14,744 bases of DNA from a virus (lineage: Duplodnaviria; Heunggongvirae; Uroviricota; Caudoviricetes), in IMG/VR virus record IMGVR_UViG_2585427758_000010, positions 1-14,744 of that record; one strand, 5' to 3'. This document shows, piece by piece, positions 1,061 through 14,744 of the stretch (the first letter of the stretch is position 1; each line of letters begins with the position of its first letter). The position numbers and the translations under genes were made by a program. A model generated the notes under the pieces. It ran no database searches, was not told the origin of the DNA, and saw nothing but the letters and a program-made list of their open reading frames with translations.

Positions 1061-1244
1061 GTCTGTAACAACCGAACTGATAGTCTGCCAGACCCGCCAT
1101 AACCAGCTGAGTCAGTATTAACTGGCAGCGTTCGCGTGAAAGGTAAGTATTCTGCGCAATCTCCCCGACTGTCGCCGGTTCGGTGACGCTTAATTCATTA
1201 AACACCACTCTGGCGGTTTCTGTCATATCCTGCTGTTTTAGCAT
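1047..1244 (-). CDS. Hypothetical small protein (65 aa)
   Basis: ATG at 1242-1244 inside the longer track ORF 1047..1331, whose first codon is GTG. Product MLKQQDMTETARVVFNELSVTEPATVGEIAQNTYLSRERCQLILTQLVMAGLADYQFGCYRRLPQ. Upstream AAGGG is only a weak Shine-Dalgarno. No family recognised. Confidence 0.4.
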   Translation of the reverse strand: MLKQQDMTETARVVFNELSVTEPATVGEIAQNTYLSRERCQLILTQLVMAGLADYQFGCYRRLPQ

Positions 1245-1364
1245 GTCTTTTTCCCTTTTCCGGTTAACGTGACACACCAATAACTCTTGTCGAAAAAGCC
1301 AGCAAGCTGAAAGACAGGTATTCACCGCCACCAGCGCGTTTACTGTACTGACGCGATTTCAGTC

Positions 1365-1388
1365 ATAAAAAACCCGCCAGGCGGCGGG
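1365..1388 (-). terminator. Candidate intrinsic terminator about 80-105 nt downstream of the Q-like gene (tR'-like position)
   Basis: Minus-strand read: CCCGCC-GCCT-GGCGGG stem-loop (plus 1373-1388) followed by TTTTTTAT (plus 1365-1372). Confidence 0.5.
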
Positions 1389-1470
1389 GTGTAAAAAATC
1401 TTCTAACGTCAGGCATAAAACGCCTATCGTTAGAGCAAATTTACCACAGATTCGGGAAAAATCAACAACA

Positions 1471-2292: not shown

Positions 2293-2669
2293 TTTTTGAC
2301 CTGCTCTTCATGCATTATGGGGTAAATCTTCACCCCCAGACGTCCACCAGATACTGGCTGACCACGAACGATATTGATTTCATCAAACTGCTCATCGTCC
2401 ATTAGCAACCCCGCATGCGTCAGCGCATCCAGCGGCGCTTTCAGAATATTGTCCAGATCACGGCGGCGCTTATCCGGTGGTTCTGCAATAATTTTTATTG
2501 CCAACCTTCCGGACAGGCTTAATTTCAGCCGCTGCTGGCGAACAATAAGCGCCACTGCCCGGCGATAACGCTCCCCGGCTTTTGATACAAAATATGTGCT
2601 GCCACGACGACGCCAGTAAGTGTTCACCGTTGGCGGGTAAGGCAAAACAAATTCTATGCGTTCAGTCAT
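2289..2669 (-). CDS. rusA: Holliday junction resolvase RusA
   Basis: 126-aa ORF with the RusA hallmark acidic cluster ...PPDKRRRDLDNILKAPLDAL... and DDEQ, the right size for the family. Start abuts the stop of the upstream DUF968 gene (2667-2669 and 2670-2672). Confidence 0.9.
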   Translation of the reverse strand: MTERIEFVLPYPPTVNTYWRRRGSTYFVSKAGERYRRAVALIVRQQRLKLSLSGRLAIKIIAEPPDKRRRDLDNILKAPLDALTHAGLLMDDEQFDEINIVRGQPVSGGRLGVKIYPIMHEEQVKK

Positions 2670-3728
2670 TTATGCTTTCCACTTCAGAACACCCGAATTT
2701 CTCGCGTGCATTAAAAAACGAATCAGCAACAACAGCTGGCTGCCGTGTTTTTCTTCAAAATCTTTTACCCCGGCGTGTAGTTCGCTATGGCATTTACGGC
2801 ACAGCGGAATAACAAACAAATCATCAGCCTTTGTTCCCATCCCTCCCAGTCCATGACCAATGATGTGATGCGGATCATCTGCCTGATTGCCACACGTCAT
2901 GCATTTCTGCGTTTTTACCCAGCGCGTGTATACAGGCATCTCTTCCCGTTGTGATTTCTGGCGCTGGAGATACTGAGCCGGTGACTCGGGATCAACGGCA
3001 ATGCTGACCACCGTCTTTTCCTGTGGTGGGTTCTGTTGCTGGTGGGCGTGAGGCAGCGGCGCAAGATTTTTTGTGCGCTGTTTCAGTATGCTGGTGGCGG
3101 TCTGCTCTCCCGGTATGATGTCGCTTTCACTGTACACAGAGCGAATTTTTTCCGCACGCAACCCCAGCGAACGACGTAATACCGCTTCCGGTAGCGCGTC
3201 CGCCACCTGATTGCGGACCGCCCACCAGGATAATTCAGCCAGAGATAATTCACGCTCCTGCGTACCGCTTATTGCGTGACCGATGACGTCAATCATCCAT
3301 GCTGACAGGTTTTGATGAGCAAGTTGCCCGAGTGATTCGGATGTCTGGTCACGCAGCTGGTTGTCGCAGTGCCAGCACAACACCATTGCGCCGGTACCAT
3401 AACGGTGAATGACGGTTTCGCTGTGATGATAATCGCCGTGTGGCCACTGGCAGGATTTAATATGGCGCAACAGCCAGTCAGACAATGCACCAGCACCACC
3501 AGCAGCACGAATCACCCGTGCGTTACTGAAAAACGGCAGCAATGTTTTGTCTTCCACCAGCGGCTGGCGAGCGGCAGGAACGACCCCGGACGGCAGATTA
3601 CGCATGCTTTTTGGTTCCGGCTCCACCAGTATTCTGCCGTTATGGAATGCTGACATTGATTCACGGCCTGGCTTAACGATAACCAGACCGAGTTCCGGTA
3701 CCAGAACAGATCGAAGTAATACCCGCAC
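2670..3728 (-). CDS. DUF968 / YdfU-like prophage protein with a C-terminal HNH-type zinc-finger motif
   Basis: 352-aa ORF. C-terminal CMTCGN...DPHHIIGHGLGG...LCRKCHSELH is an HNH-like CxxC...HH...CxxC-H arrangement. Position immediately upstream of rusA and Q matches the lambdoid nin region. Confidence 0.8.
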   Translation of the reverse strand: MRVLLRSVLVPELGLVIVKPGRESMSAFHNGRILVEPEPKSMRNLPSGVVPAARQPLVEDKTLLPFFSNARVIRAAGGAGALSDWLLRHIKSCQWPHGDYHHSETVIHRYGTGAMVLCWHCDNQLRDQTSESLGQLAHQNLSAWMIDVIGHAISGTQERELSLAELSWWAVRNQVADALPEAVLRRSLGLRAEKIRSVYSESDIIPGEQTATSILKQRTKNLAPLPHAHQQQNPPQEKTVVSIAVDPESPAQYLQRQKSQREEMPVYTRWVKTQKCMTCGNQADDPHHIIGHGLGGMGTKADDLFVIPLCRKCHSELHAGVKDFEEKHGSQLLLLIRFLMHARNSGVLKWKA

Positions 3729-3729
3729 A

Positions 3730-4008
3730 TTACCTCCAGATCCGTTGCTGGAATGTGCGGGACGGACGCGCTGGCCGTTCTGAGTAAGGGAGCCTGACGG
3801 AGATTATCCAGTGACGGTAGTCGAGGCTAAGGGCTTTTTTAACCTCGCATCCGCGCCCGCGGTAACACTGAATGAGCCATTCAGCCTGTTCTTCGGTGCA
3901 GGGGTCGTGCTGATACCAGTCAGATTTGAATGCATGAGAACGCCGCCCGTGCCTGCTGGCAGGGGCGGCAGAGTTATCCGAATTGTAAAATTTGGTATCG
4001 TGCGCCAT
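3730..4008 (-). CDS. Hypothetical protein (92 aa); possibly the 3' remnant of a gene truncated by the adjacent AT-rich insertion
   Basis: ORF with phage-like GC content and a weak RBS. The frame stays open for 28 codons upstream of the ATG to a stop at 4096-4098, exactly where composition switches to AT-rich, with no alternative start. Confidence 0.45.
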   Translation of the reverse strand: MAHDTKFYNSDNSAAPASRHGRRSHAFKSDWYQHDPCTEEQAEWLIQCYRGRGCEVKKALSLDYRHWIISVRLPYSERPARPSRTFQQRIWR

Positions 4009-4275
4009 CTGTTTTCTCTGCTGGCGCAGCAGGTGCCAGTTGTTCAGGCTGACGTATGAAGTATAAATAAACTGGCTCCAGTGTAAAGCCCCACCTTAAT
4101 GGAATAAAAACCAAACAACAGATTGCTGGGATAAAAATACAACGCTTATTATTAAAAGCGGTTAGATAAATTAAATTTTAATGTTATGCAAATCTGCCAG
4201 ATTAGCATAATATTTCATTTGAAAACCGCTGAAATAACAATCTTATCGGGATTAATCATATTAAGGTGAGTAAAT

Positions 4276-4362
4276 ATGGAAAACAACAAATCTGCACATT
4301 ACGCTCCTTTTTTATCTGTAATACTTTTTGTATTTTGTTGTGTATGGGCGGTATTTTTATAA
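4276..4362 (+). CDS. Small hydrophobic peptide (28 aa), candidate membrane peptide
   Basis: AAGGTGAG Shine-Dalgarno 5 nt upstream of ATG 4276. Product MENNKSAHYAPFLSVILFVFCCVWAVFL is a polar N-terminus plus one predicted transmembrane helix. Stop TAA at 4360-4362 is followed by the hairpin at 4378-4407. Below the 60-aa threshold of the ORF track. Confidence 0.35.
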   Translation: MENNKSAHYAPFLSVILFVFCCVWAVFL

Positions 4363-4377
4363 AACACACCCACAAAT

Positions 4378-4407
4378 AAATCAAACCCGCTACAGCGGGT
4401 TTGATTT
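4378..4407. terminator. Bidirectional intrinsic terminator between convergent genes
   Basis: Perfect inverted repeat AAATCAAACCCGCT-AC-AGCGGGTTTGATTT with a GC core and T-rich flanks on both strands. It lies 16 nt after the small + ORF and 10 nt after the stop of the minus-strand protease gene. Confidence 0.6.
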
Positions 4408-4416
4408 ATATAGTTG

Positions 4417-6681
4417 TTATACGGAAACTGGCACACGAGCAGGCAATGGATAGTGAGCCCAGTTATTAGCATTTAAAGCTCTTACGCCATCAGCATAAAC
4501 TTGTGTGTTTCCATCTAATGATTTTAAAGTTACTACAATAGTTACAGGTAAAGGCTCCATTAAGGCCGGTTCATTCGCTCTCAACGTTGTTTTAGCTTGA
4601 AGAGCCCAGTTACCCGAAGTAATTCCTTTATTAAATGCCTTGCGATGAATTTTTACTGGTGACCACTTTCCACCATGCTCAATTTGAGCTCTCTCATATC
4701 CAGATTGACCGTTTTCTCCTTCCATAGGTACTTTTCCTTTTATAGTATTATTCTCAATTAAGCCAAAACTTAGCTCTACGTTCGCGCGAACATATTCACT
4801 GCCGGCATTAGGGTTCAGTGGTGGTGCATATGCAGCAGTAATTACAATCTCACCTTTAAATTTTCCATTTTGAATAAGTGCCGATGGTATGGGATAGTTT
4901 TCCTTTCTCCACCTCACCCCAGGAACCAAGAATGTTTGGAAAATCAGAGTAAACCTATCATCACTATCATATAAGGTCTCAATAACCTCATTAGGAATTC
5001 CCGCTCCCAAATAGCGTCTTTCACTTGGCGAGTAATCAGGAGAAGATAATTGAGCGGAATGAATTAATAATGCTTTAATCAATGATGGTGAAACATTAAA
5101 GTCTGAATTAGTGGCTATTCTCTGCCATGTATGCGCAGCTAAACTTGCCACAATTGGAGCAGCAAAACTAGTACCAAAATTAGAGCAAAGCCTATTATCT
5201 GGCCCTACGACCTTTAAACTGCTTGCTCCTACATTCCAAGGTCTATGAACCCCACCGCCAGCATGGATTATATCTGGCTTTGGAGTAAATACAGGCCCAG
5301 GGCCACGACGAGTATATGGTGTCGGTGTTCCAATTTCACTTAAAGCATCATTAGCTTCCATATGAGAAACTGAACCAACTGTTAGTGCTCGGACTGACTC
5401 TCCAGGAGAGGAAATTAAATCAGCACCTCCAAGCGGATCAGGATTTGGCCATGTACGTATAGGTTCATCTACATAATTACCTGCAGCAACTACAAACAAA
5501 ATACCAAATTTATCGCTGAGCCGATCTAACTCCATCGCAAAATCACTAAACATCTGCTCATTACATGGTCCGCCTCCCAAAGATAAATTCCAGACTTTTA
5601 TATCTGGTCTTTTATTTACAGCATCTGCTAGCCTCAGAATTAAATCTGATATATAAGATCCATTTTCATCTAAAGCACAAACATCATGGATTTTAGATTT
5701 TGTATCAGGAATCCATGGATGATTGTCATTTAAAAAATGAGCGCCTGATATCAATGAAGACACCATAGTCCCATGTTCATAACTCGTATCAGGAGGAATT
5801 ACGTATGTTTCCCTACTCACTACCCAAGGAGTAATTGTTGCCGCGATGGGGCTTACCCCAGTGTCAAATACAGCAACAATGGGTAATTCTTCTGATGGTA
5901 CGGGAAAGCTATTTGTTTCAATGCCAACAGAATCACTTACACTAACCGGGAATGCTGAATATTTTGGTTCTGGAATTAACGTTCTTATACCCGGGTAATC
6001 AATGAGAATGTCTAATATATATCTATCATTTGGGGATAAATCCATTATCCTTAATAAGGGAAGACCACATTTTGGTCTAATCTCATCATATTTAACTCCG
6101 TGTTGTTCTAATATAGAAATAACGTTTTCATAGTTGTTGTAAGTTGCATCTTCACCTGTGTACTCAAATAGTCGTACAAGGATGTTTGATGATTCAAACA
6201 AACCATCAGTGCCTCCTGGAACCTTCCTATTCTCATCCCAAGGTTCAATGCGCTCAATCGCGCTTAGGTTAGCCAAAATCGCTTTAATATTCCGATGTAA
6301 AATGACTGACTCTAATACGTCAAAACAGCCGGCATGAGCAGCAACCAACATTTCATCTATTTTGGCATGACCGGCATTTTGCAATCCAGCCTCTTGAGCA
6401 ATTTTGTTCGGCCTATGCGTTTTGGCTATTCCCTGGTCTCTTAATTTGAAAACCAAAGTACCCAAGCTTCCAGGGTACTCTGAAAGTTTGGATTCTAAAT
6501 AATGTTTACTGGTTGTTAAATTTCTTACTAGCCCTTGTCTATATTCGGCTGTTACATCAACCAATACCTTTGCCCCACCGCCAGCGTTTACTATTGCACC
6601 CAAGTCACTACTGGAAAAAGGGATTCTTAACATTGGGTTTGTAACTTTTGCGTTACTAAACTGTGTACCCCTTCTGCTCAT
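4417..6681 (-). CDS. Subtilisin-like serine protease (peptidase S8 family), IetS-like
   Basis: 754-aa ORF with the S8 catalytic motifs in canonical order: Asp in VAVFDTGV, His in HGTMVSSLISG, oxyanion Asn in VVAAGNY, Ser in GTSFAAP. About 270 aa precede and about 200 aa follow the catalytic domain. AGGAG lies 3 nt before the ATG. The 5' end overlaps the upstream ATPase gene by 26 bp. Confidence 0.9.
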   Translation of the reverse strand: MSRRGTQFSNAKVTNPMLRIPFSSSDLGAIVNAGGGAKVLVDVTAEYRQGLVRNLTTSKHYLESKLSEYPGSLGTLVFKLRDQGIAKTHRPNKIAQEAGLQNAGHAKIDEMLVAAHAGCFDVLESVILHRNIKAILANLSAIERIEPWDENRKVPGGTDGLFESSNILVRLFEYTGEDATYNNYENVISILEQHGVKYDEIRPKCGLPLLRIMDLSPNDRYILDILIDYPGIRTLIPEPKYSAFPVSVSDSVGIETNSFPVPSEELPIVAVFDTGVSPIAATITPWVVSRETYVIPPDTSYEHGTMVSSLISGAHFLNDNHPWIPDTKSKIHDVCALDENGSYISDLILRLADAVNKRPDIKVWNLSLGGGPCNEQMFSDFAMELDRLSDKFGILFVVAAGNYVDEPIRTWPNPDPLGGADLISSPGESVRALTVGSVSHMEANDALSEIGTPTPYTRRGPGPVFTPKPDIIHAGGGVHRPWNVGASSLKVVGPDNRLCSNFGTSFAAPIVASLAAHTWQRIATNSDFNVSPSLIKALLIHSAQLSSPDYSPSERRYLGAGIPNEVIETLYDSDDRFTLIFQTFLVPGVRWRKENYPIPSALIQNGKFKGEIVITAAYAPPLNPNAGSEYVRANVELSFGLIENNTIKGKVPMEGENGQSGYERAQIEHGGKWSPVKIHRKAFNKGITSGNWALQAKTTLRANEPALMEPLPVTIVVTLKSLDGNTQVYADGVRALNANNWAHYPLPARVPVSV

Positions 6682-7810
6682 ATGCTCCTGACTCCTTCAG
6701 AATGTTTGAAATTACTCTTGATGTAAGTTTGTACAAATTAGCAAGAACTCTGATAGAAAATAATTTTTTATCTTTAGAACGTAACCAACGAATTTCATCT
6801 TCGTAAGTGCTTAAATTTACACCTTCCATAAGCGATTGCGCAAGATACAAACGCCTATACAATTTATGGTGATTTATCACACTTGCACCTTCAATAACTG
6901 CATCCCTACGTGCATCCAAGCTCACCTGTTCAATTATTGCTCCGGATAATCCCTCCGATTTTCTTGATAAATCACTTAAATCTAGATCGCTACATATCAT
7001 ATTCTTTAAACGATTTTTCCAAATTAACTCTCTCTGATGTATGTCAGGCAGAGGCATTGGAATTCTGAAGCTAAATCGCCTCCAGATTGCAGGATCCAGA
7101 AGTTGCTCATGGTTAGTTGAGGCAATAATTACCGTATCCTCTGATGCCGCATCCATATTCTGCAATAGTGAAATGACAACTCGCTGAAGCTCACCTATAT
7201 CTCTCTCATTACCTCTTGCTCCAGCTAAAGCATCAAATTCGTCTAAAAAAAGCACTGATGGCCTCTGCATTACATAATCGAAAACCTGTCTAAGATTTTT
7301 GCTGGTTTGTCCCAATAAACTACTAATCAAAGTATCGCAACGCACTGTAAGAAGTGGAAAATCTAAGCGGGTAGCGATGTACTTAGATAACATAGTCTTA
7401 CCTGTTCCTGGCTTTCCATACACGAGCATACGACTCGGCAATGCTGCATCAGCTTTAACAAACTCATCATAACGTTGAACATTAGTGATAAACTCTTCAA
7501 CACGGGTACTGATTGCTGCAGGCAGAAAAATCTCTGAACTGTCTAATTTAGGATAACTGACATCAACAGTGTTGAGTCGACTATCAATATCTACCGGTAA
7601 TGAGCCCAGAGATATCCCACCTCCAGCCCTTTGAGCTCCTGCCAACGCCTGGGGAGCTCTAAGCAACCTTTCTCTTATCATTCTGGCTTGCTTGACCTCC
7701 CCTTTTTGTTCGAGCTTATCTGCCAGCAACCCAGCATAATTACTAGCCATCGAAGCATTTGCCTTTGTTGCACCTTCAATGATTTTTAACACTTCTGATA
7801 AATAATCCAT
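6656..7810 (-). CDS. AAA+ ATPase, IetA-like
   Basis: 384-aa ORF. Walker A GKPGTGKT, Walker B VLFLDEFD, sensor-1 and arginine-finger region ...IIASTNHEQLLDPAIWRRF, so classic-clade AAA with an N-terminal domain of about 125 aa. GGGAG RBS 6 nt before the ATG. AT-rich codon usage, unlike the flanking phage genes. Confidence 0.9.
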   Translation of the reverse strand: MDYLSEVLKIIEGATKANASMASNYAGLLADKLEQKGEVKQARMIRERLLRAPQALAGAQRAGGGISLGSLPVDIDSRLNTVDVSYPKLDSSEIFLPAAISTRVEEFITNVQRYDEFVKADAALPSRMLVYGKPGTGKTMLSKYIATRLDFPLLTVRCDTLISSLLGQTSKNLRQVFDYVMQRPSVLFLDEFDALAGARGNERDIGELQRVVISLLQNMDAASEDTVIIASTNHEQLLDPAIWRRFSFRIPMPLPDIHQRELIWKNRLKNMICSDLDLSDLSRKSEGLSGAIIEQVSLDARRDAVIEGASVINHHKLYRRLYLAQSLMEGVNLSTYEDEIRWLRSKDKKLFSIRVLANLYKLTSRVISNILKESGAYEQKGYTV

Positions 7811-8003
7811 TCAACACTCCCACAACAAAAAGCCACAGCAATCAAAAAATGAGCACACAGAATCAAAATACTCTCTAATCGTAACGCATTTTGAGATTTT
7901 TGATACGTTTTTTTGGGATTATGTAACGCCAAATGGTCATTTTGTGTCAGAAAAATAAATCTTAGTACCGAGAATATGTAGCTTCCATCCTTCATCGTTC
8001 TAT

Positions 8004-8435
8004 TCATCCCTGATCTCCAAGCCTCTCTCGAAAACCATTCTGATAAAACGCCAGCACACGCTGCATAACTTCGCTCTTCCGGCACTCGCGACAGATTATG
8101 TTCAGACGCCTGTCGTAGCGGCGTATTTCTCCGTCTGGTAATGACCAGATAAGGTCCGGATCAACCACAGATGGTTTCTTCACCTTTGCCCTGGATAGTT
8201 TTTTGCGGGCATTTTGCCAGTCCTTACGAGCCTGTTCAGACGGGAATAACCCGTAACCAGAGTTGTATACATCGCCACTGGCAACCAGCTCTCTGGCGAG
8301 AACGCTCATCAGATATCTTGTCGCACCTGTCTTGGCTTCCAGTTGCCGTAACGTCTCGCGCCCACTCCGGCGTACTAGCTCAACAACCTGCCCTTTAATT
8401 TTTTCCCGCTCTTCTTGTGTAAATACTTTTGCCAT
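8004..8435 (-). CDS. Hypothetical prophage protein (143 aa)
   Basis: ATG at 8433-8435 preceded by GGAGG at 5-nt spacing; the track ORF 8004..8450 begins at an upstream TTG. Product MAKVFTQEEREKIKGQVVELVRR... with a CRECRK motif. No family assigned. Confidence 0.7.
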   Translation of the reverse strand: MAKVFTQEEREKIKGQVVELVRRSGRETLRQLEAKTGATRYLMSVLARELVASGDVYNSGYGLFPSEQARKDWQNARKKLSRAKVKKPSVVDPDLIWSLPDGEIRRYDRRLNIICRECRKSEVMQRVLAFYQNGFRERLGDQG

Positions 8436-8450
8436 AAGCGCCTCCGGCAA

Positions 8451-9212
8451 TCACTTTTCCGATACAACACGGCGGGAAGAATCAGTAATCTGTCGAACAA
8501 TATCCCGGTGCTTGTTCAGCTCCCGCAGCGCGGCGCAGACTCGCTCCCACTTCTGGACATGATTTTTCGCCCGACGCAGTTCGCGGTTTGCCATATGCAG
8601 TGATGGTAAAACCAGGTCATCCGCTCGCGTTTCAGTAAACGATGGCAGCGACTGCACAATGTCCGCCACAGTTTCTGTTTTAATATCTTCCTGTGTTGCA
8701 GCCTCCTGTACTGGTAACGCAACACCTGCGGTATGAGGAAAGGCCTTACCATCAGTTTCCGCTACCGATGCTGCTTTCGGCTCTGCTGGTAAATTATCGC
8801 CCGGTATGCAGTAACGAAATTTACCGCCCTGATTTACGCGAATCAGACGACCTTTGCTGATTGCCATTGCCAGCGTTGAAGCCACTTTGCGTGATGTGGT
8901 ACCAAACAATGTAGCCAGCTCATCAGCCATTTGTGGTCCTCGTTGTTCAATCGTCGCGGTTAAATCGCACTCTGAGATTTTCGCTACTGTTGCTGTGGTG
9001 ATTTCTTCCGGCAGTTCTGCCTGCGCTGGCTGTTCCTGCTGAACGTTGTTATCAGCCACACGCCAGGTGTACGCGCTTTTATCAACAAAACCAGCCTTTT
9101 TCAGTTCCCATAGTTCGTTCAGCACTTCTTCACGACTGATATCAAGTCGCGCAGCAAGTTCTATGGATGTGGCTTTTCCCATTGCTTTCAGTGCGTCAAA
9201 AACAGTCTCCAT
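8451..9212 (-). CDS. Hypothetical protein with an N-terminal winged-helix-like segment (253 aa; alternative start at 9263 gives 270 aa)
   Basis: ORF with [43 protein letters not shown]... at the N-terminus. GGGAG lies 9 nt upstream of ATG 9210-9212. The in-frame ATG at 9263 would overlap the DnaC-like gene by 29 nt. Confidence 0.65.
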
Positions 9213-9234
9213 TAAATTTTTCTCCCGGTAAAAA

Positions 9235-9981
9235 TTACTTCGCAATTCCTGGCTGGACGACATTCGGACGCCAGCTCTCCCAGTTAAAATTCACCCATAG
9301 CCCGCCGTTCATGGTCATGCGATCCATAATCCGCTCGCCGAGCAATGTTTTCATGGCCTCATAGTTCAGGTTTGTCAGCATCCCCACGCTGCGCATCGAC
9401 GCTGTCCGGCGATCAACAATCTGGTGCAGTACCACCTGCTCGTTTTTCGTCTCGCGCTGAATGCCAATTTCATCAAGAACCAGCAGATCCACTTCGCACA
9501 GTTCCCGCAAAAATTTTTCGCCTGACTGCCCATCGTCATAGCTGGCGTGGAGGGCACTCATAACATCAGCCACGGTAACCACAATCACTGTCTGACCGTC
9601 TTTCAGCAGGCGATTCCCGATAGCTGCTGCTAAGTGGTTCTTCCCGGTACCAGGTTTTCCGCTAAACGCGAAATTTGTGCATCCGGTCATCAGTTCATCA
9701 GCGATAGATTTCGCCTGGCTCAACGCGTATCGCTGACCGTCGTTCTGCACCTGGTAATTCGCAAACGAGCATTTACGGTGCAACGGCTGGATGCCTGAGC
9801 GATTCAGAATTTTTTCCACCCGCAACTGGCGATTCAGGCGGTTGATCTCCTCGCTACGTTTCTGGCCTTCAGCAAGTTGCCACTCGTGCCACTCCGCTAC
9901 CGTTCTGAATGGGGCGGTTACATGTGGCGGAGCCAGTCTTCGGATACGTTCAAGAACGCCGCCTGCCGCAATGTTTTTCAT
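9235..9981 (-). CDS. DnaC-like replicative helicase loader (IstB/DnaC ATPase family), lambda P analogue
   Basis: 248-aa ORF with Walker [16 protein letters not shown], Walker B LLVLDEIG, and size and position typical of prophage DnaC homologues such as Rac YdaV. Confidence 0.9.
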
Positions 9982-9987
9982 GACACG

Positions 9988-10950
9988 TCACCCCCTGAAT
10001 CCCGGCGGTATTTCAGTGTCCGGTTCAGAAATGTGATTCACGCAACGCTGCGCAGGCAAACGCCCCAGGCGGATAACCAGTTCATCCCATTTTTCCCGGA
10101 GTTTTGCCGGACTCATGATGTTTTTTACCCAGAACGAATCCCGCTGGAGACGCCCAAACATTTCACAAATTTGTCTGTGAGTTCTGCCATCCAGCATCCG
10201 CATTGTGCGAACGTCATTGGCCCATGCTGTCCAGTTGGGTTCTTTCGGTCTAGTGATCTCGCCATCATAGCTGGCCGCCTGCTCGTAAAGACTCACGATT
10301 CGTCCCCAGATCCACTGTGCGCACACCAAATCTTCCTGACTTCCCCACTGGCGTTTTTTCGCACTGAACACAACCGCGTCAGGGTGTCGGGTTAAAAAAT
10401 CCTGTTCAGCCGTCTGCGGGTCCGGTTGCGAAGCGTCCGGACAAGAAGATCTTTTATCTGACGGATCAGGTTTTAATACTGACGGATCGGGGTCAATCAT
10501 CGGCCCCCTAATCGGCAGTTTTTTATCAACAGTTGATCCATCAAAATTTGACGGGTCAACCGTTGAGGGGTCAATATTTGACGGGTCAACTGTTAACGGG
10601 TCATTTTTTGCCGGGCTAATTTTTCTTTTCGGTTTATATGACTCACGCGCCGCCGCCGCAGCTGCTTCGAGTTTTTCCACATTAAGCCGATAGATATTGC
10701 TTACATTACGCCCACCGACCTTACGCTCTTCCTTCGTCAGCCAGCCCTCTTTCGCCAGTTCTGCAATAGCCGATTTCACTGTGGATTCACTTCTTGCACC
10801 GATCTGACGCCGGATAGTTTCAATGGCAGGCCATGACACGCCCTCGTCATTGCTGTAGTCTGCAAGACGGGCCATAACCGCCACCCTGGATAAGATCATG
10901 CCGGTGAAGGCGCACCCTTCCCAGACAAGACCATGAAGCTTGCTGCTCAT
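9988..10950 (-). CDS. Replication initiator / replisome organiser (lambda O-like or YdaU-like), containing the putative origin
   Basis: N-terminal winged-helix-like segment (...WPAIETIRRQIGARSESTVKSAIAELAKEGWL...), a central repeat-encoded linker (DPLTVDPSNIDPSTVDPSNFDGSTVD) and a C-terminal domain. ATG at 10948-10950 is preceded by a G-rich RBS; the track ORF starts at an upstream GTG (10965). Confidence 0.8.
   Translation of the reverse strand: MSSKLHGLVWEGCAFTGMILSRVAVMARLADYSNDEGVSWPAIETIRRQIGARSESTVKSAIAELAKEGWLTKEERKVGGRNVSNIYRLNVEKLEAAAAAARESYKPKRKISPAKNDPLTVDPSNIDPSTVDPSNFDGSTVDKKLPIRGPMIDPDPSVLKPDPSDKRSSCPDASQPDPQTAEQDFLTRHPDAVVFSAKKRQWGSQEDLVCAQWIWGRIVSLYEQAASYDGEITRPKEPNWTAWANDVRTMRMLDGRTHRQICEMFGRLQRDSFWVKNIMSPAKLREKWDELVIRLGRLPAQRCVNHISEPDTEIPPGFRG
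10527..10643. repeat. Iteron-like array plus adjacent AT-rich tract: putative phage origin of replication inside the initiator gene
   Basis: Five tandem units of about 15 bp, each a TTGA-N4-TCAA dyad: agTTGAtccaTCAAaa, atTTGAcgggTCAAc, cgTTGAggggTCAAt, atTTGAcgggTCAAc, tgTTAAcgggTCATt. The 15-mer ATTTGACGGGTCAAC is identical at 10546-10560 and 10576-10590. Followed by TTTTTTGCCGGGCTAATTTTTCTTTTCGGTTTATAT. Lambda ori has the same layout inside gene O. Confidence 0.5.
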
Positions 10951-10972
10951 AAACCCCCCGAACACCGTGCTT

Positions 10973-11398
10973 TTAGTGCATCACCACAGCATTCCCTGCC
11001 GGGCCGCCGCGATTCATCTGGTCATACAAAACAACCGCTGACGCAACAAAATCATCGACATCCTTCACCAGCCGATCCCTCCGTTCGACGATCTCACGGT
11101 AATATTCAGAACTGTGGCTGCGCATACGGGCCACCAGCAAAGGCGGCATCGCCTTTTCGATCGCCGGTAACAGAGCCTGCATTTTTTCAACAGCATCAGG
11201 GGTGTCTTTATCCAGCCAACGGAAAATTTTCTGGGTATTACGGGCCAGGGCTTCCGGATGGCTGTCGTCATACAGTTCCGGGAACGTCATTCCCAGCTCG
11301 AAATACGCTTTGGTAATTTTCGCAGCCGGCACTTTTTCGCCGTCCGGATGCGCCCAGACATTCATCGCCATGCGGATGTGTTCATGCTTGATTTTCAT
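10973..11398 (-). CDS. YdaT-like protein (cII-position gene of Rac-type immunity regions)
   Basis: 141-aa ORF directly downstream of the Cro-like gene, with AGGAG 9 nt before the ATG. N-terminus MKIKHEHI... Assigned by synteny with the Rac racR/ydaS/ydaT arrangement. Confidence 0.7.
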   Translation of the reverse strand: MKIKHEHIRMAMNVWAHPDGEKVPAAKITKAYFELGMTFPELYDDSHPEALARNTQKIFRWLDKDTPDAVEKMQALLPAIEKAMPPLLVARMRSHSSEYYREIVERRDRLVKDVDDFVASAVVLYDQMNRGGPAGNAVVMH

Positions 11399-11663
11399 GA
11401 ATCAAGCTCCTAGAAAGTGGTTGTGTTAACGTTTTGGTATCTTCCAGCTCGGGCCAAATATTCATCCAATCAAAAGGCCTTAGTTGCTGACGTGTAACTT
11501 CACCATTACTGGCTCGCTCAATAAGGACACATAACGATGCCCCTAACACTTGACCTTTACTCAATGCCTTTCTTAGATAACCGATGCTGGTACCACACTC
11601 GCATGCAAACATACGCTGTTCATCTGACGAAAGAGAATTGAGAAATATTCTTAATTCTTCCAT
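11382..11663 (-). CDS. Cro-like HTH protein of the YdaS family, first gene of the PR-like operon
   Basis: 93-aa ORF with a perfect AAGGAG SD 5 nt before the ATG. HTH region ...CGTSIGYLRKALSKGQ... and the motif LIERASNGEVTRQQLRPFDW that I associate with YdaS-type proteins. Divergent from the repressor gene. Confidence 0.8.
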   Translation of the reverse strand: MEELRIFLNSLSSDEQRMFACECGTSIGYLRKALSKGQVLGASLCVLIERASNGEVTRQQLRPFDWMNIWPELEDTKTLTQPLSRSLIHENQA

Positions 11664-11689
11664 AGCTACTCCTTAGTAAACACAGCAAA

Positions 11690-11735
11690 GAATACCCACA
11701 GGTAAACAAAAGTCAATACCCACAGGTTGTTTACC
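11690..11735. promoter_or_regulatory. OR-like operator/promoter region between divergent Cro-like and repressor genes
   Basis: Direct repeat AATACCCACAGGT at 11690-11702 and 11714-11726, each holding the dyad-ended 12-mer TACCCACAGGTA, plus inverted GGTAAACAA / TTGTTTACC. On the minus strand a TTGACT -35 and a TATTCT -10 at 16-nt spacing overlap these repeats. On the plus strand TATTAT lies 6 nt before the repressor ATG with no SD. Confidence 0.5.
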
Positions 11736-11763
11736 TTGCGGTAATCGCATCTATTATTTACCT

Positions 11764-12183
11764 ATGGACAAATATGAATTTAGACGACAGCAACTCATCA
11801 AAATTCGTGATGAGAAATGCGATGGTAAAGCGGTTAACGTGGCCAGAAAGATCGGGCGCGAGCCTTCTTATGTATCAAGAATGTTGTACCCAGAGGGGAA
11901 AAAGGGAAAAAAACGGATCGCTGATGATATGGTGGAGATTATCGAAGAGTCCTTTGGGTTACCCCGGGGATGGATGGATGGTATCGTTTCATCATCAACG
12001 AACACAGCCTCCAGTTATGAAACAAGGGTTCTAACGCCACGACAACGTATTTTTTTAGATCTCTTAGACGAACTGCCAGAAAGTGAAGCGGATAAATTAT
12101 TAAAAACTCTTGAAGAGAAAAAACAGTATTACAATATGATCTACGAAGAAATCCGTAAAAAGAAAGCACAAAACGCATCATAG
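11764..12183 (+). CDS. Prophage repressor, RacR/DicA-like (cI analogue, XRE-type HTH)
   Basis: 139-aa ORF with HTH ...KAVNVARKIGREPSYVSRML... and a C-terminal LDELPESEADKLLKTLEE segment reminiscent of DicA-type repressors. Divergent from the Cro-like gene, and no SD before the ATG. Confidence 0.8.
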   Translation: MDKYEFRRQQLIKIRDEKCDGKAVNVARKIGREPSYVSRMLYPEGKKGKKRIADDMVEIIEESFGLPRGWMDGIVSSSTNTASSYETRVLTPRQRIFLDLLDELPESEADKLLKTLEEKKQYYNMIYEEIRKKKAQNAS

Positions 12184-12225
12184 CTCACCAAACAACTAGT
12201 CACCAGTTAAGACACCGCAAAAATT

Positions 12226-12262
12226 TACCCATGGGTATTTACTTTTTAAATACCTATGGGTA
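12226..12262. promoter_or_regulatory. OL-like operator pair and probable PL-like promoter
   Basis: Perfect palindrome TACCCATGGGTA at 12226-12237 and near-copy TACCTATGGGTA at 12251-12262. Together they form a 35-bp near-perfect inverted repeat ACCCATGGGTATTTA-CTTTT-TAAATACCTATGGGT. Same TACC...GGTA core as the OR repeats. Possible -35 TTTACC and -10 TAAATA at 17-nt spacing. Confidence 0.45.
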
Positions 12263-12448
12263 TCCTTCTTTTCATACCAACCCACCCCGCCCCACAGAAT
12301 GCAGGGCAATACTTCGAGTTACCAGGCAGTGGTCAGGGGTTAAGTAGCCAGCCCGAGGCGTAAGAACATGACGGCAGGGTTCAACTTTAATAACTATGCA
12401 GCAGGTTTTTGTTCCGCTACCCCGGCGTTAAGGGGAAATGAGGTCAAC

Positions 12449-12601
12449 ATGGATATGCTCAATCTTGGCAACAACGAATCTCTGGTATGTGGCGTGTTCC
12501 CCAACCAGGACGGCACGTTTACCGCGATGACGTATACCAGAAGCAAAACGTTTAAAACTGAAGCTGGCGCGCGTCGCTGGTTAACCAGAAACACTGACTG
12601 A
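12449..12601 (+). CDS. Small protein (50 aa), YdfA/YdaF-like by position
   Basis: ATG 12449 preceded by GAGGT at 4-nt spacing. Product MDMLNLGNNESLVCGVFPNQDGTFTAMTYTRSKTFKTEAGARRWLTRNTD. It is the first gene after the repressor, as ydfA is in Qin and ydaF in Rac. The longer track ORF from 12368 has no RBS. Confidence 0.55.
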   Translation: MDMLNLGNNESLVCGVFPNQDGTFTAMTYTRSKTFKTEAGARRWLTRNTD

Positions 12602-12612
12602 TGAGGTTGACG

Positions 12613-13014
12613 ATGGAATTTAAAGATTTACCAGTACCATTCCAGGAAATGGCATCGAATGTGGTTCGCTCTCAACTGGCGACTCTTGACCTGAGTACCG
12701 TAGAAAAAGAAACCATCGATACTATATCCGGTAACGTGCGTCGTGCCTTTATAGGTCTGTATGAAGAGAAGCGCCTATTCGGCGGACAGAATTCGCCTGA
12801 AAACAAGAATCAAGCAAATGATGAGAAGCTGAAACACATTATCGCCTTACTTTTGGAAGACGCAAAACGTCTACAGCAACTGGAACCAAATGCAGGCACA
12901 GAGGCCCGCATTTGGATTGCCATGAAATCACTCAAATGTGAAAGCAGTGATTATTTCAAAACAACAATTAAAACTACTCAACTTTCGGGAGAGCTACTGA
13001 AGAAATTGCCATAA
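12613..13014 (+). CDS. Hypothetical protein (133 aa), no recognisable domain
   Basis: ATG 12613 preceded by GAGG at 6-nt spacing; the ATG at 12601 overlaps the upstream stop and lacks an SD. Lys/Glu-rich, AT-richer than neighbours. Its 3' end overlaps the convergent minus-strand gene by 41 bp. Confidence 0.55.
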   Translation: MEFKDLPVPFQEMASNVVRSQLATLDLSTVEKETIDTISGNVRRAFIGLYEEKRLFGGQNSPENKNQANDEKLKHIIALLLEDAKRLQQLEPNAGTEARIWIAMKSLKCESSDYFKTTIKTTQLSGELLKKLP

Positions 13015-13252
13015 GAGCATGGTCTTTCTCTTGTTCTGCAAGATGAGCATTAATACCTGGTATGGTTTTTTCAAATTTATCTATCTGTTGAATAACAACT
13101 TCGCGGTATACGTTTGTTTTTGTACCACCAAGCGCAGCCGTTAATGCAGAAAGCATATTTAGTATCATATCAGTGCGATATGAAAGAATCCTGATAGCTT
13201 CATCTTGTTTTTCAATAATAGATTGCAGGGCCTCAATTTGCTTTTTATCCAT
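12974..13252 (-). CDS. Hypothetical protein (92 aa), probably coiled-coil, convergent with the 133-aa gene
   Basis: Strong AGGAGG SD 6 nt upstream of ATG 13250-13252. Product MDKKQIEALQSIIEKQDEAIRILSYRTDMILNMLSALTAALGG.... The longer track ORF to 13291 starts at a non-RBS Met. Confidence 0.55.
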   Translation of the reverse strand: MDKKQIEALQSIIEKQDEAIRILSYRTDMILNMLSALTAALGGTKTNVYREVVIQQIDKFEKTIPGINAHLAEQEKDHALMAISSVALPKVE

Positions 13253-13584
13253 TTCACCCTCCTGAGGGTTGGTAATTAAGGAGTTCTCCACGGGTCAGGT
13301 GGAGTGCGTGCGCCGGACACGGGTGAACATCCGGCACTGACAGTTTACTGAAAGGATATGTCCCTGAAAAGTCAGGGCATAACGCGAAAGCGCACGGCGA
13401 AATTGGTCTCTCTGTACGGTGTCGTTAAATTTAGTTCGACCGTGCGCTTCCGGTTGTGGCAATCCGCGAAATGGTGCGGCGGTAAGTATGGCGGGGTTAT
13501 TCCTTCCCCCGTTGAGGACACCGGGTTGTCAGGTTGACCATACGCTTAAGTGACAACCCCGCTGCAACGCCCTCTGTTATCAAT

Positions 13585-13642
13585 TTTCTGGTGACGTTTG
13601 GCGGTATCAGTTTTACTCCGTGACTGCTCTGCCGCCCTTTTT
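13585..13642 (+). ncRNA. dicF: DicF small regulatory RNA (Hfq-dependent sRNA of the dicB operon)
   Basis: TTTCTGGTGACGTTTGGCGGTATCAGTTTTACTCCGTGACTGCTCTGCCGCCCTTTTT matches my recollection of the 53-nt DicF RNA and ends in a GC-rich element plus T5. It sits about 170 nt upstream of dicB, the position it has in Qin. Identity is from memory, not a search. Confidence 0.6.
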
Positions 13643-13811
13643 AAAGTGAATTTTGTGATGTGGTGAATGCGGCTGAGCGCACGCGGAACAGTTAAAACCA
13701 AAAACAGTGTTATGGGTGGATTCTCTGTATCCGGCGTTAATTGTTAACTGGTTAACGTCACCTGGAGGCACCAGGCACCGCATCACAAAATTCATTGTTG
13801 AGGACGCGATA

Positions 13812-14000
13812 ATGGAAACGTTATTACCAAACGTTAATACGTCTGAAGGTTGTTTTGAAATTGGTGTCACTATCAGTAACCCAGTATTTACTGAAGATGC
13901 CATTAACAAGAGAAAACACGAACGGGAGCTATTAAATAAAATATGCATTCTTTCAATGCTGGCCCGTTTACGTCCGATACAAAAAGGATGCTGGCAATGA
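13812..14000 (+). CDS. dicB: Cell division inhibitor DicB
   Basis: 62-aa product METLLPNVNTSEGCFEIGVTISNPVFTEDAINKRKHERELLNKICILSMLARLRPIQKGCWQ closely matches the DicB sequence I recall. GAGGA RBS upstream. Stop overlaps the ydfD start as ATGA. The track ORF 13707..14000 is an N-terminally extended version. Confidence 0.85.
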   Translation: METLLPNVNTSEGCFEIGVTISNPVFTEDAINKRKHERELLNKICILSMLARLRPIQKGCWQ

Positions 14001-14188
14001 ATACAGCATTTGCACTTGTTCTGACAGTTTTTCTTGTTTCCGGAGAGCCAGTTGATATTGCAGTCAGTGTTCACAGGACAATGCAGGAGTGTGTGACTGC
14101 AGCAACCGAACAGAAAATTCCCGGTAACTGTTACCCGGTCGATAAAGTTATTCACCAGGATAATAACGAAATCCCGGCAGGTCTTTAA
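13997..14188 (+). CDS. ydfD: YdfD (Qin-type small lysis-associated protein)
   Basis: 63-aa product MNTAFALVLTVFLVSGEPVDIAVSVHRTMQECVTAATEQKIPGNCYPVDKVIHQDNNEIPAGL with a hydrophobic N-terminus. Translationally coupled to dicB. Matches my recollection of YdfD. Confidence 0.75.
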   Translation: MNTAFALVLTVFLVSGEPVDIAVSVHRTMQECVTAATEQKIPGNCYPVDKVIHQDNNEIPAGL

Positions 14189-14280
14189 AACAGTTCCGTA
14201 ATAAATATCCGGTTTCATTCTTATATGCCAGCAATGGCAGGGATTTGTTCACCCTTAAATCTGTAATGAGGTAAAACAAA

Positions 14281-14462
14281 ATGAGTAAAGTCTTTATTTG
14301 CGCCGCCATTCCGGACGAACAGGCAATAAAGGAAGAAGGTGCCGTCGCTGTAGCCACTGCCATTGAAGCCGGTGATGAACGTCGCGCCCGCGCAAAATTT
14401 CACTGGCAATTCCTGGAACATTATCCGGCTGCTCAGGACTGCGCTTATAAATTTCTTGTCTG
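14281..14462 (+). pseudogene. ydfE-like gene truncated by IS1 insertion
   Basis: GAGGT RBS then MSKVFICAAIPDEQAIKEEGAVAVATAIEAGDERRARAKFHWQFLEHYPAAQDCAYKFLV. The last seven residues and stop of the track ORF (WVMTPTY*) are encoded by the IS1 terminal repeat, so the native reading frame is interrupted at 14462/14463. Confidence 0.6.
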
Positions 14463-14744
14463 GGTAATGACTCCAACTTATTGATAGTGTTTTATGTTCA
14501 GATAATGCCCGATGACTTTGTCATGCAGCTCCACCGATTTTGAGAACGACAGCGACTTCCGTCCCAGCCGTGCCAGGTGCTGCCTCAGATTCAGGTTATG
14601 CCGCTCAATTCGCTGCGTATATCGCTTGCTGATTACGTGCAGCTTTCCCTTCAGGCGGGATTCATACAGCGGCCAGCCATCCGTCATCCATATCACCACG
14701 TCAAAGGGTGACAGCAGGCTCATAAGACGCCCCAGCGTCGCCAT
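14463..14744 (-). mobile_element. IS1 insertion sequence, partial (insB-proximal end; rest beyond window)
   Basis: Terminal inverted repeat GGTAATGACTCCAACTTATTGATAGTG begins at 14463, followed by sequence encoding the InsB C-terminus on the minus strand. Confidence 0.9.
14478..14744 (-). CDS. insB: IS1 transposase InsB, C-terminal 88 codons (5' part beyond the window end)
   Basis: Translation [88 protein letters not shown] is the C-terminal portion of IS1 InsB as I recall it. Stop TAA at 14478-14480 lies inside the IS1 terminal repeat. Confidence 0.9.

Follow-up and report, generated by a model that had tools for sequence, protein, structure and literature searches.

The window, by which we mean the whole analysed stretch of 14,744 bp, carries the immunity region of a lambdoid prophage and the genes that follow it. 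The repressor gene (11764-12183, plus strand) encodes a protein of 139 residues. It lies divergent to a Cro/YdaS-like gene (11382-11663, minus strand), whose product, a protein of 93 residues, is 73% identical to the Cro protein of phage mEp043 over 73 residues. Downstream of the repressor gene and on the same strand, we found a ydfA-like DUF1391 gene (12449-12601), which is the first annotated gene of an operon and has an in-frame upstream ATG at 12368; the small RNA DicF (13586-13637; Rfam RF00039, 76.7 bits); and two further genes, dicB (13812-14000) and a ydfD-like DUF1482 gene (13997-14188). This gene order agrees with an earlier note on the same DNA, made from the sequence alone, which named an operon of a small gene, DicF, dicB and ydfD.

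The repressor is composed of two parts of different affiliation. Its N-terminal helix-turn-helix (HTH) domain (residues 1-72) is of the mEp043 CI type and shares 50-82% identity with the N-termini of LexA/S24-type phage repressors of 220-242 residues, including mEp043 cI; the identity to mEp043 CI was 65% over 86 residues. A linker joins this domain to a helical, DicA-like C-terminus, which showed 33% identity to DicA over 46 residues. As the similarity to DicA is confined to these 46 C-terminal residues and the operators differ, the repressor is not a DicA orthologue. The AlphaFold2 model likewise revealed an HTH domain and a helical C-terminus (pLDDT of 84). Its best structural match in the PDB was the SPC32H repressor Rep in complex with the antirepressor Ant, followed by XRE-type HTH folds; a PDB search by sequence gave insignificant matches only, and a Pfam search with the 139 residues gave no match. 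The DNA-binding domain has no Pfam model and occurs with a C-terminus that is either SOS-cleavable or DicA-like. The LexA-like S24 self-cleavage domain (PF00717) is absent from the window repressor, where the C-terminus aligns with that of DicA instead, and induction would therefore presumably proceed via an antirepressor or through instability of the protein, as for DicA.

Direct reading of the sequence bore out that a perfect palindrome and a near-copy of it lie downstream of the repressor gene. The palindrome, TACCCATGGGTA, occupies 12226-12237, and the second site, TACCTATGGGTA, which is palindromic but for one base, occupies 12251-12262. These two 12-bp sites are 25 bp apart from centre to centre, and the pair starts 43 bp past the repressor stop codon (12183). 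The near-perfect inverted repeat that had been described around them is also present, but its span is 37 bp (12226-12262, plus strand) rather than 35 bp; a repeat search gave arms of 16 nt each (12226-12241 and 12247-12262) with 94% complementarity and a gap of 5 nt, so that the transcript could form a hairpin. Much of this complementarity arises because two similar palindromes stand side by side, and the inner flanks, TATTTA and TAAATA, are the sole extension of the hairpin beyond the paired palindromes.

The core TACC-N4-GGTA of these sites recurs in the divergent region, as had been proposed, where we found three sites instead of two: TACCCACAGGTA (11693-11704), TACCCACAGGTT (11717-11728, with one mismatch) and TACCTTGCGGTA (11732-11743). 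The exact motif TACCNNNNGGTA occurs four times in the window and all four copies flank the repressor gene, while the mean chance expectation is 0.14 and none of 200 shuffled sequences reached four. Relative to the repressor ATG, the sites are located at -71, -47 and -32 and at +462 and +487, and the divergent region and the downstream pair are separated by 533 bp. A look-alike with two mismatches, which overlaps the repressor ATG (11759-11770), has no conserved counterpart in relatives and was rejected as an operator. Allowing up to two mismatches, no third downstream operator was found upstream of 12226.

To place this arrangement in context, we compared the loci that encode the same DNA-binding domain, about 48 in all, from Enterobacterales, Aeromonas, Neisseria, Burkholderiales and Xanthomonadales (including Xanthomonas). 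In 515 kb over 48 loci, which share ancestry and are not independent events, 152 exact sites were present, where a naive expectation would be about 8, and 140 of the 152 are found at set distances upstream of the ATG of the repressor gene or as members of a downstream pair. In particular, 75 cluster around -72 and -32 relative to the ATG, with a further one-mismatch site at about -47, and 65 belong to the downstream pair, whose spacing is 25-26 bp and which is present in 36 of the 48 loci. A cluster of two sites in an OL/PL-like position downstream of the repressor gene, as the earlier note had supposed, thus appears to be a feature of the family as a whole. The N4 centre of the motif varies freely across the family. 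The recognition helix of the repressor is nearly invariant, which is why no covariation of specificity was found inside the family; covariation of operator and repressor was seen between different immunity types only. We conclude that TACC-N4-GGTA in a layout of three plus two sites is likely to be the operator code of this widespread DNA-binding domain. Three distant members without TACC sites (L027, L043 and L047) contained no clear alternative repeated motif, and one further locus (L008) has decayed operator sites.

The two promoters of the divergent region were both called by a standard promoter scan. The leftward PR-like promoter, TTGACT-16-TATTCT (11689-11716, minus strand), is predicted to drive the cro/ydaS-like gene, and the rightward PRM-like promoter, TTTACC-16-TATTAT (11730-11757, plus strand), has the same geometry in relatives. 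Just 6 nt separate the -10 element of the latter from the repressor ATG, a spacing that implies a leaderless repressor mRNA; the paaR2 and lambda cI mRNAs are leaderless as well (PMC8630535). The OR1-like site (11693-11704) overlaps the -10 element and spacer of the PR-like promoter, the OR2-like site (11717-11728) adjoins its -35 element and stands immediately before the -35 element of the repressor promoter, and the OR3-like site (11732-11743) overlaps the PRM-like -35 element (TTTACC, 11730-11735).

At the downstream pair, the candidate for a PL-like promoter is TTTACT-17-TATCCT on the plus strand. The predicted -35 element, TTTACT (12238-12243, 4/6), and the predicted -10 element, TATCCT (12261-12266, 4/6, with A2 and T6 present), match the consensus at 8 of 12 positions; the scan made no call here because its threshold was 9/12. 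Transcription is predicted to start at the A at 12274, 8 nt after the -10 element, where a conserved leader begins. The promoter-distal, OL2-like operator (12226-12237) directly adjoins the -35 element. After 7 bp this element is followed by the promoter-proximal, OL1-like operator TACCTATGGG(TA) (12251-12262), which covers the spacer and whose final TA starts the -10 element. When reverse-complemented, the window's own PR-like promoter aligns with this region, TTGACT opposite TTTACT, and the PL-like promoter is an inverted near-copy of the PR-like one. A natural variant has TATTCT as its -10 element. In a Salmonella relative (L050), whose repressor is 83% identical, both sites are kept and the promoter is called by the scan at 9/12.

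The register of these hexamers is fixed across the family. The -35 hexamer stands in the same register as -35-like hexamers in the 36 related loci with a downstream pair, and is identical in a Yersinia locus (L007). When the hexamer adjoining site 1 was scored against TTGACA in these 36 loci, with forward defined as the direction of the repressor gene, the mean was 4.47 of 6 in the forward orientation, 1.56 in the reverse and 1.48 for random sequence. A score of at least 4 was reached in 30 of the 36 loci in the forward orientation and in one, the window itself, in the reverse. The hexamers that start from the TA of site 2, among those listed, all end in T. These results argue for the PL-like promoter predicted in the earlier note, with -35 and -10 hexamers that point away from the repressor gene, and its position coincides with that of the annotated putative PL of mEp043, with which it can be aligned. 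The same scores bear on a leftward antisense promoter, TTTAAA-17-TAAATT on the minus strand, pointing back at the 3' end of the repressor gene. Both orientations score 4+4 in the window, but this equality results from an extension of the inverted repeat that is peculiar to the window, and the reverse mean across the family equals random; we therefore regard such a promoter as highly improbable.

The sites could also be auxiliary operators that serve only for looping to the divergent region, in which case there would be no local promoter and the operon would be driven from elsewhere. The distance of 533 bp, the octamerisation of PaaR2 and lambda CI (PMC8630535) and the weak hexamers of the window all fit such a role. 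Against it, the -35/-10 register is conserved and directional, no other promoter was called by the scan between 12263 and the first gene, and a mosaic boundary lies at the predicted start. In addition, lambda combines looping with local repression, so that looping would be an addition to a local promoter and not an alternative to it. Auxiliary operators alone are accordingly a quite improbable explanation.

The hairpin raises the question of termination. A terminator scan flagged 12226-12262 together with its tail, and the hairpin is stable (-22.2 kcal/mol; z = -7.2 against shuffled sequences). If these signals and the silence of the promoter scan at 9/12 were all that is considered, the palindrome could merely end the repressor transcript, with no promoter present and the resemblance to the operator motif incidental. 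The probability of the motif coincidence is negligible, however, and 36 loci share the pair with its flanking -35/-10 hexamers, mostly with a separate terminator ahead of it; one close relative lacks the T-run. Moreover, the operon would otherwise be promoterless, and the conserved leader begins exactly here behind many promoter types. A terminator and nothing else is thus a very remote prospect.

The earlier note had set terminator and promoter against each other, but the two readings do not exclude one another. The OL/PL-like element might in addition use its 16-bp hairpin and UCCUUCUUUUC as an intrinsic terminator of the leaderless repressor transcript, and would thereby protect the lysogen from read-through into the toxic dicF/dicB operon. 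Between the stop codon at 12183 and the operators, scanning revealed no other terminator-like signal, whereas relatives have a separate terminator at that place (CAGCCCGCAAAGCGGGCTTTTTT in mEp043; GGTCGG..CCGACCTTTTTTTT in 606R7), and the T-run is retained in all window-type variants in IMG/VR. The need for a terminator at the equivalent position has been demonstrated in Rac, where the Rho-dependent terminator trac inside racR is required for silence of kil (PMC4150792). On the other hand, the stem is rich in A-T, with 5 G-C pairs among its 16; the tail UCCUUCUUUU is a broken U-tract that has a single U in the three stem-adjacent positions; and the stem is weakened by N4 variants found in nature (CACG). 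In the Salmonella relative, which has the same operon, the hairpin occurs without the T-run and the terminator scan made no call. The T-rich tract TCCTTCTTTTC (12263-12273, plus strand), absent from that relative, would serve both as the U-rich tail of a terminator and as the -10/discriminator region; T-runs also occur in Klebsiella relatives that lack a good hairpin, so the T-richness may belong to the promoter discriminator. Taking both sides together, we consider the additional terminator function possible but rather doubtful.

The leader (12274-12448, plus strand) is conserved, and its first 25 nt are rich in C and poor in G (14 C and 2 G). It starts 6-11 nt past the -10 element behind at least 12 unrelated operator/promoter (immunity) types, including that of K-12 Rac, and a mosaic boundary coincides with the predicted start. 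In four types other than that of the window for which the divergent region was read (Qin, Evi, 666R9/Tritos and 606R7), the promoter repeats match those of the respective divergent region. A leader of about 180 nt had been predicted; this agrees with the 175 nt to the RefSeq start of the DUF1391 gene (12449), but only 94 nt separate the predicted start from a conserved Shine-Dalgarno sequence and ATG at 12368, in frame with ydfA. When a query that included the leader was searched against 5426 complete E. coli genomes, parts of it found matches in 4241.

We found no evidence that the leader is a structured RNA. Its fold was no better than those of shuffled sequences (z = +1.1), an Rfam search gave no match even at E <= 10 beyond chance miRNA matches to the hairpin, and RNAalifold revealed no compensatory changes among 58 distinct leaders and a 75%-identical copy on pPE4, which breaks most of the predicted pairs. 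There was no similarity to the region of HK022 that holds PL and putL, no N-like ORF or boxA/boxB (nutL) was found downstream of the window promoter, and no second copy of the leader, as an analogue of putR, was found in the window. A put-like or nut-like antiterminator RNA was rejected because Rfam match, fold, covariation and HK022 similarity were all lacking. A match of 65 nt of the leader to a Serratia T7-like phage (E = 4e-3) was treated as probably spurious. From its conservation and placement, the stretch from 12274 to about 12438 might, more speculatively, work as a movable cis-regulatory module and not simply as an untranslated leader. It could, for example, be a site where Rho loads in a manner coupled to the translation of a short upstream ORF, which would gate the expression of toxic kil/dicB operons after loss of the repressor.

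Taken together, the palindrome pair is very likely the OL region of a lambdoid prophage, placed over its PL-like promoter, and the second binding region of the repressor. We infer binding, repression and the start site at this promoter from the comparison with related loci, which supports the OL/PL reading well. Dimers of the 139-residue repressor would bind both OL-like sites, to which the Cro/YdaS-like protein probably binds too, and the bound repressor would block RNA polymerase at the PL-like promoter. The transcript of the leader, ydfA, a 133-residue ORF, DicF, dicB and ydfD, with the exonuclease gene and others possibly following, would then be silent in the lysogen. The scan called no terminator between the PL-like promoter and dicB, and the promoter directly after the repressor gene very probably drives the genes from ydfA through dicF and dicB to ydfD, as in Qin. 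The same repressor would act at the three sites of the divergent region, and the two regions, 533 bp apart, may interact through cooperativity or looping. As a control element, this is an ordinary lambda-type arrangement that involves no new principle and extends the paradigm of lambda, Qin and CP-933P to another immunity type.

In lambda OL/PL, as in the window, a second operator cluster with the recognition sequence of OR lies beyond the repressor gene; the proximal site covers the -10 element and spacer, with the next one at the -35 element. The sites are spaced by 24-25 bp in the two. The promoter, a predicted one in the window, has the direction of the repressor gene and leads into genes for a kil-type division inhibitor and for recombination, and the repressor mRNA is leaderless in lambda and probably so in the window. 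In contrast, lambda has three OL sites of 17 bp, whereas the window has two with a 12-bp TACC-N4-GGTA core, located 43 bp after the repressor stop codon without rexAB or a separate timm. The window also lacks an N gene and nutL, in place of which it has another conserved leader, and its repressor lacks the S24 cleavage domain.

A very similar layout is that of mEp043 (GenBank JQ182734 and PV340537), which has a homologous repressor DNA-binding domain and Cro, three OR sites at -72, -47 and -32, and an OL pair 25 bp apart, with a -35 element adjoining site 1 and a -10 element starting in site 2. Its order is TACCTATAGGTA, TAGACA, an intervening stretch and TACCTGTAGG(TA) continued by TATT, then a lambda-type nutL and gene N, and the GenBank record annotates exactly that 29-bp stretch as 'putative PL'. 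The two differ in that mEp043 CI has an S24 peptidase domain, that its OL comes after a small ORF and an intrinsic terminator of its own, and that its PL leads into a lambda-type nutL and N, while that of the window would lead into the ydfA-dicF-dicB operon. A literature search found no published test of the mEp043 operators. The record of mEp043 'c-1' is identical to that of mEp043 over the 3.2 kb compared, without a clear-plaque mutation in cI.

The Qin prophage also has a two-operator promoter, dicBp, directly after the repressor gene, which drives ydfA through dicF and dicB to ydfD and is repressed 22-fold by DicA (PMC10448788). DicA is likewise short and non-cleavable, with a homologous C-terminus; its DNA-binding domain, however, is unrelated and its operator is TTAGYYATRRCTAA. 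The Qin promoter is TTGACC-17-TAATCT with operators 34 bp apart, and Qin lacks the first ~135 nt of the conserved leader. CP-933P of E. coli O157:H7 resembles the window in its short non-SOS repressor, YdaS-type Cro, YdaT-type CII and leaderless repressor gene, and in a PL analogue with OR-type repeats, PL933P, which is repressed about 100-fold by PaaR2 and YdaS (PMC8630535). A promoter of the CP-933P type is followed by the same conserved leader (Evi L004 and IMG/VR loci). Differences are the other repressor family, the repeats (GTTTAGT) and a toxin-antitoxin pair between the repressor gene and PL. Phage 933W also has three OR sites and only two OL sites (PMC3317979), but these are of 15 bp and of another sequence, and no homology of its repressor DNA-binding domain to that of the window repressor was detected.

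In K-12 Rac, the repressor gene racR is followed by TTGACA-17-TATAGT with RacR-type repeats and then by the same leader. The small genes behind it include a DUF1391 gene, an antisense gene (sieB), an sRNA (KilS) and a division inhibitor (kilR), and the operon is derepressed, with ydaG and kilR rising, when racR is silenced (bioRxiv 10.64898/2026.09.06.749655). Repressor and operator are different from those of the window, and read-through from the repressor promoter is halted in Rac by the Rho-dependent terminator inside racR (PMC4150792) rather than by an operator hairpin.

The immunity region of the window was present in 821 of 5426 complete E. coli genomes, including EPEC E2348/69. About 15% of these genomes thus carry the prophage type, in which the element described here is the probable control point of the dicF/dicB operon of cell-division inhibitors; the element also offers ready-made constructs for testing the induction of a non-cleavable repressor.

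The DNA was found to be a lambdoid prophage of E. coli; positions 1-14462 showed 99.5% identity to the chromosome of strain WP7-S17-ESBL-04, and the studied region showed 99.7% identity to EPEC E2348/69. DnaC-like, O-like, YdaT-like and Cro/YdaS-like genes extend up to 11663 on the minus strand, and a divergent region of 100 bp separates the Cro/YdaS-like gene from the 139-aa repressor ORF on the plus strand (11764-12183). Further downstream are ydfA/DUF1391 (12449-12601), a 133-aa ORF, DicF (13586-13637; Rfam, 76.7 bits), dicB (13812-14000) and a ydfD-like gene. Direct reading of the sequence 3' of the repressor gene confirmed, with small corrections, the palindrome and near-copy that the earlier note had described: TACCCATGGGTA occupies 12226-12237 and TACCTATGGGTA occupies 12251-12262. 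The surrounding inverted repeat, described as 35 bp long, is present but spans 37 bp, with 16-nt arms (15 of 16 positions complementary) and a 5-nt loop. The divergent region contains TACCCACAGGTA (11693), TACCCACAGGTT (11717) and TACCTTGCGGTA (11732). The window contains four exact copies of TACCNNNNGGTA, all of them flanking the repressor gene, whereas the shuffled window held a mean of 0.14 exact sites and none of 200 shuffles reached four; the proposed core common to both regions was thus upheld.

We compared the window with 41 loci carrying the repressor domain (one genome per species), together with phage mEp043, phage CharmingMan and four contigs with closer relatives, giving 48 loci and 515 kb in total. 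These loci, which ranged from Enterobacterales to Neisseria, Burkholderiales and Xanthomonas, contained 152 exact TACCN4GGTA sites, compared with about 8 naively expected. TACC and GGTA were invariant across the sites while the N4 centre varied freely, and the consensus lines revealed little conserved sequence outside them. Of the 152 sites, 75 lay between -90 and -20 from the repressor ATG, in constant positions near -72 and -32; an additional one-mismatch site lay near -47. Another 65 formed a downstream pair with a spacing of 25-26 bp, which was present in 36 of the 48 loci at a distance varying from +460 to about +4000. The offsets in the window (-71/-47/-32 and +462/+487) fit this family layout exactly. 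The OR2-like and OR3-like sites (11717-11743) are 15 bp apart centre to centre, leaving a 3-bp gap between cores, and this spacing is kept in nearly all family members (loci L007-L053); by comparison, 24-26 bp separate OR1 from OR2 and the two OL sites from each other. Steric hindrance may limit binding to OR2 and OR3 at the same time.

The downstream pair also carried a conserved promoter register. The hexamer directly 3' of site 1 was TTGACA-like on the strand of the repressor gene and not in reverse: among the 36 pair loci, the mean TTGACA score was 4.47 of 6 forward, against 1.56 in the opposite orientation and 1.48 with random hexamers, and scores of at least 4 were reached by 30 of 36 loci forward and by 1 of 36 in reverse. 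The hexamer that starts with the last TA of site 2 read TATATT, TATTCT, TAATAT and the like, with a final T in every locus listed. In the window, the predicted -35 is TTTACT (12238-12243), identical to that of the Yersinia locus L007, and the predicted -10 is TATCCT (12261-12266), after a 17-bp spacer. A simple promoter scan did not call this promoter because it requires 9 of 12 matches, but the same scan called the equivalent TTTACA-18-TACACT in a Salmonella relative as well as the PR-like promoter of the window (TTGACT-16-TATTCT). The PL-like stretch aligned base for base with the reverse complement of this PR-like promoter and with mEp043. The gene order in mEp043 is cI, a small ORF, an intrinsic terminator and then the site pair, which reads TACCTATAGGTA|TAGACA|ACTGCTT|TACCTGTAGG(TA|TATT) and is followed by CATCAGCAGGAC, boxA/boxB (GCTCTTAAAAATTAAGCCCTGAAGAAGGGC) and gene N. 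By comparison with the lambda sequence, we take CATCAGCAGGAC to be a lambda-type start and likewise recognize a presumed nutL. The 'putative PL' annotated in the mEp043 record (GenBank JQ182734) is exactly the 29-bp TAGACA...TATATT stretch; our literature search found no paper testing mEp043-type operators. The OL/PL-like reading of the earlier note was thus supported by the footprint in 48 loci, the promoter register and the mEp043 annotation, and the comparisons point to an ordinary lambda-type left operator-promoter, an element already known in kind, belonging to a previously uncharacterised immunity type.

Homology of the window to phages of other immunity types starts at about 12270-12275. 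An IMG/VR scan with the leader core yielded 116 usable loci with at least 12 unrelated upstream operator/promoter types; in each, a -35 could be recognised and the -10 ended 6-11 nt 5' of CCAACCCACCCCGCCCCACAGAA, and a transcription start at about A12274 is predicted. In all four non-window types for which the divergent region was read (Qin, Evi, 666R9/Tritos and 606R7), the promoter repeats were those of the locus's own divergent region. The repeats were TTAGYYATRRCTAA in Qin, GTTTAGT in the CP-933P type, GTACT in the HK022-like type and ATCTAA...TTAGAT in a further one; for Rac, the promoter repeats alone were read (ATTAGGCAT). As judged from these sequences, repressor type covaries with operator type at both control regions.

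The conserved leader stretch (12274-12438, about 165 nt) was also found in K-12 Rac (L179), where it lies between racR and ydaG, and in L004, L005, L006, L050 and L176. Its first 25 nt contain 14 C and 2 G. No unusual structure was seen in its fold, no Rfam family matched it, no covariation was seen in its alignment, and it showed no likeness to the HK022 region holding putL. The predicted leader of about 180 nt agreed with the 175 nt to the RefSeq ydfA start (12449), but only 94 nt separate A12274 from a conserved GAGG-N10-ATG (ATG at 12368; 12354-12448). Because the ORF from this ATG continues in the ydfA frame, both in the window and in the majority of ydfA-linked variants, giving a 77-aa form, RefSeq start 12449 may not be the sole ydfA start; in one ydfA-linked variant the frame was shifted internally yet restored. 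At Rac-type loci this ORF has 18-20 codons and terminates at the SD of the next gene; in phage pPE4 it has 6 codons. That the leader acts as a Rho- or translation-coupled gate is a speculative possibility. An unannotated gap in the T7-like Serratia phage Kaonashi (2001-2067) matched 65 leader nt at 78% identity (E = 4e-3), possibly by chance.

The operator hairpin might additionally terminate the repressor transcript. Its RNA is stable (-22.2 kcal/mol, z = -7.2), although the stem is AT-rich and its complementarity is largely automatic, given two similar palindromes; natural variants alter the N4 of site 1 regardless of pairing. TCCTTCTTTTC directly follows and a terminator scan flags the element, but the U-tract is interrupted. 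Klebsiella relatives have T-runs 3' of site 2 with no good hairpin, whereas in the Salmonella relative the operators, promoter and hairpin are retained with neither a T-run nor a terminator call. A pure terminator with no promoter, the alternative set against the operator reading, is very unlikely. The interval from the repressor stop codon to the first operator contains no other terminator-like signal, and a toxic operon needs some device against entry of repressor transcripts: mEp043 and 606R7 have separate intrinsic terminators in this interval, and Rac has a Rho-dependent one inside racR, whose failure is lethal via kil (PMC4150792). A dual role in this lineage, as OL/PL element and terminator, is conceivable but rather doubtful.

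The 139-aa protein had no Pfam match and matched PHROG 5736 ('transcriptional regulator'). Residues 1-72 showed 50-82% identity to the N-termini of 220-242-aa proteins with LexA-type S24 peptidase (PF00717) C-termini from Salmonella, Klebsiella, Edwardsiella, Pantoea, Yersinia and beyond. Identity to the gene annotated cI in mEp043 was 65% over 86 aa and 76% over the first 72 aa (tblastn), and the Cro-like protein was 73% identical to mEp043 Cro. The C-terminal 46 residues showed 33% identity to the DicA C-terminus (E = 2e-7). An AlphaFold model (pLDDT 84) placed a disordered linker (77-87) between a helical HTH domain and a helical hairpin; its top PDB match was the SPC32H Rep repressor in the Rep-Ant (antirepressor) complex, and XRE-type HTH proteins ranked next. 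From these homologies, the model and the PDB match, the repressor is therefore a CI-type DNA-binding domain whose fused C-terminus is DicA-like and non-cleavable; by implication, this is a form of a normally SOS-type immunity that escapes SOS cleavage. The DNA-binding domain of this chimera lacks a Pfam model and is common to S24/LexA-type phage repressors, including mEp043 cI. Some E. coli database entries (P0010, P0019) carry frameshifted alleles whose N-terminus comes from an alternative frame opening at 11774 (11774-12034) and in which the first half of the HTH domain is missing, suggesting repressor decay in some prophage copies. The repressor -10 (TATTAT) ends 6 nt 5' of the ATG with no SD (11752-11766), and the mRNA is predicted to be leaderless; the relatives read and the consensus have the same geometry (TAGAAT/TAAGAT, then 6-7 nt, then ATG).

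By analogy with lambda and CP-933P, we infer that in a lysogen repressor dimers on 12251-12262 (covering the spacer and -10) and on 12226-12237 (next to the -35) would keep RNA polymerase off the PL-like promoter, while repressor at 11693 and 11717 would silence the PR-like promoter. When bound at 11717, whose centre lies about 42 bp before the leaderless start, the repressor may activate its own promoter, and 11732 overlaps the putative -35 of that promoter. Since the repressor has no S24 domain, induction would probably require an antirepressor or an unstable repressor, as with DicA (PMC10448788). Promoters at the equivalent position provide experimental precedents. DicA represses dicBp 22-fold, with transcripts spanning ydfA to dicF (PMC10448788); PL933P is repressed about 100-fold by PaaR2 and YdaS, and paaR2 is leaderless (PMC8630535); silencing of racR induces ydaG, kilR and recE (bioRxiv 10.64898/2026.09.06.749655; PMC6765115). 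Phage 933W, like the window, has three OR and two OL sites (PMC3317979).

Several other features were observed. A 105-aa antisense ORF (12974-13291, minus strand; PHROG 18692, unknown function) sits within the putative early-left operon, after the 133-aa ORF and before DicF, at a position occupied in Rac by sieB. Two large minus-strand ORFs of 754 and 384 aa (4417-7810) correspond, by position and length in the 99.5% identical genome, to the annotated anti-phage S8 peptidase IteS and ATPase IteA; this defence-system cargo has the replication genes on one side and the Q-antiterminator region on the other. Finally, IS1-like sequence at about 14443-14744, with 98% identity to an IS1A copy elsewhere in the related genome, breaks an exonuclease VIII-like gene (start 14281) that is intact in that genome.
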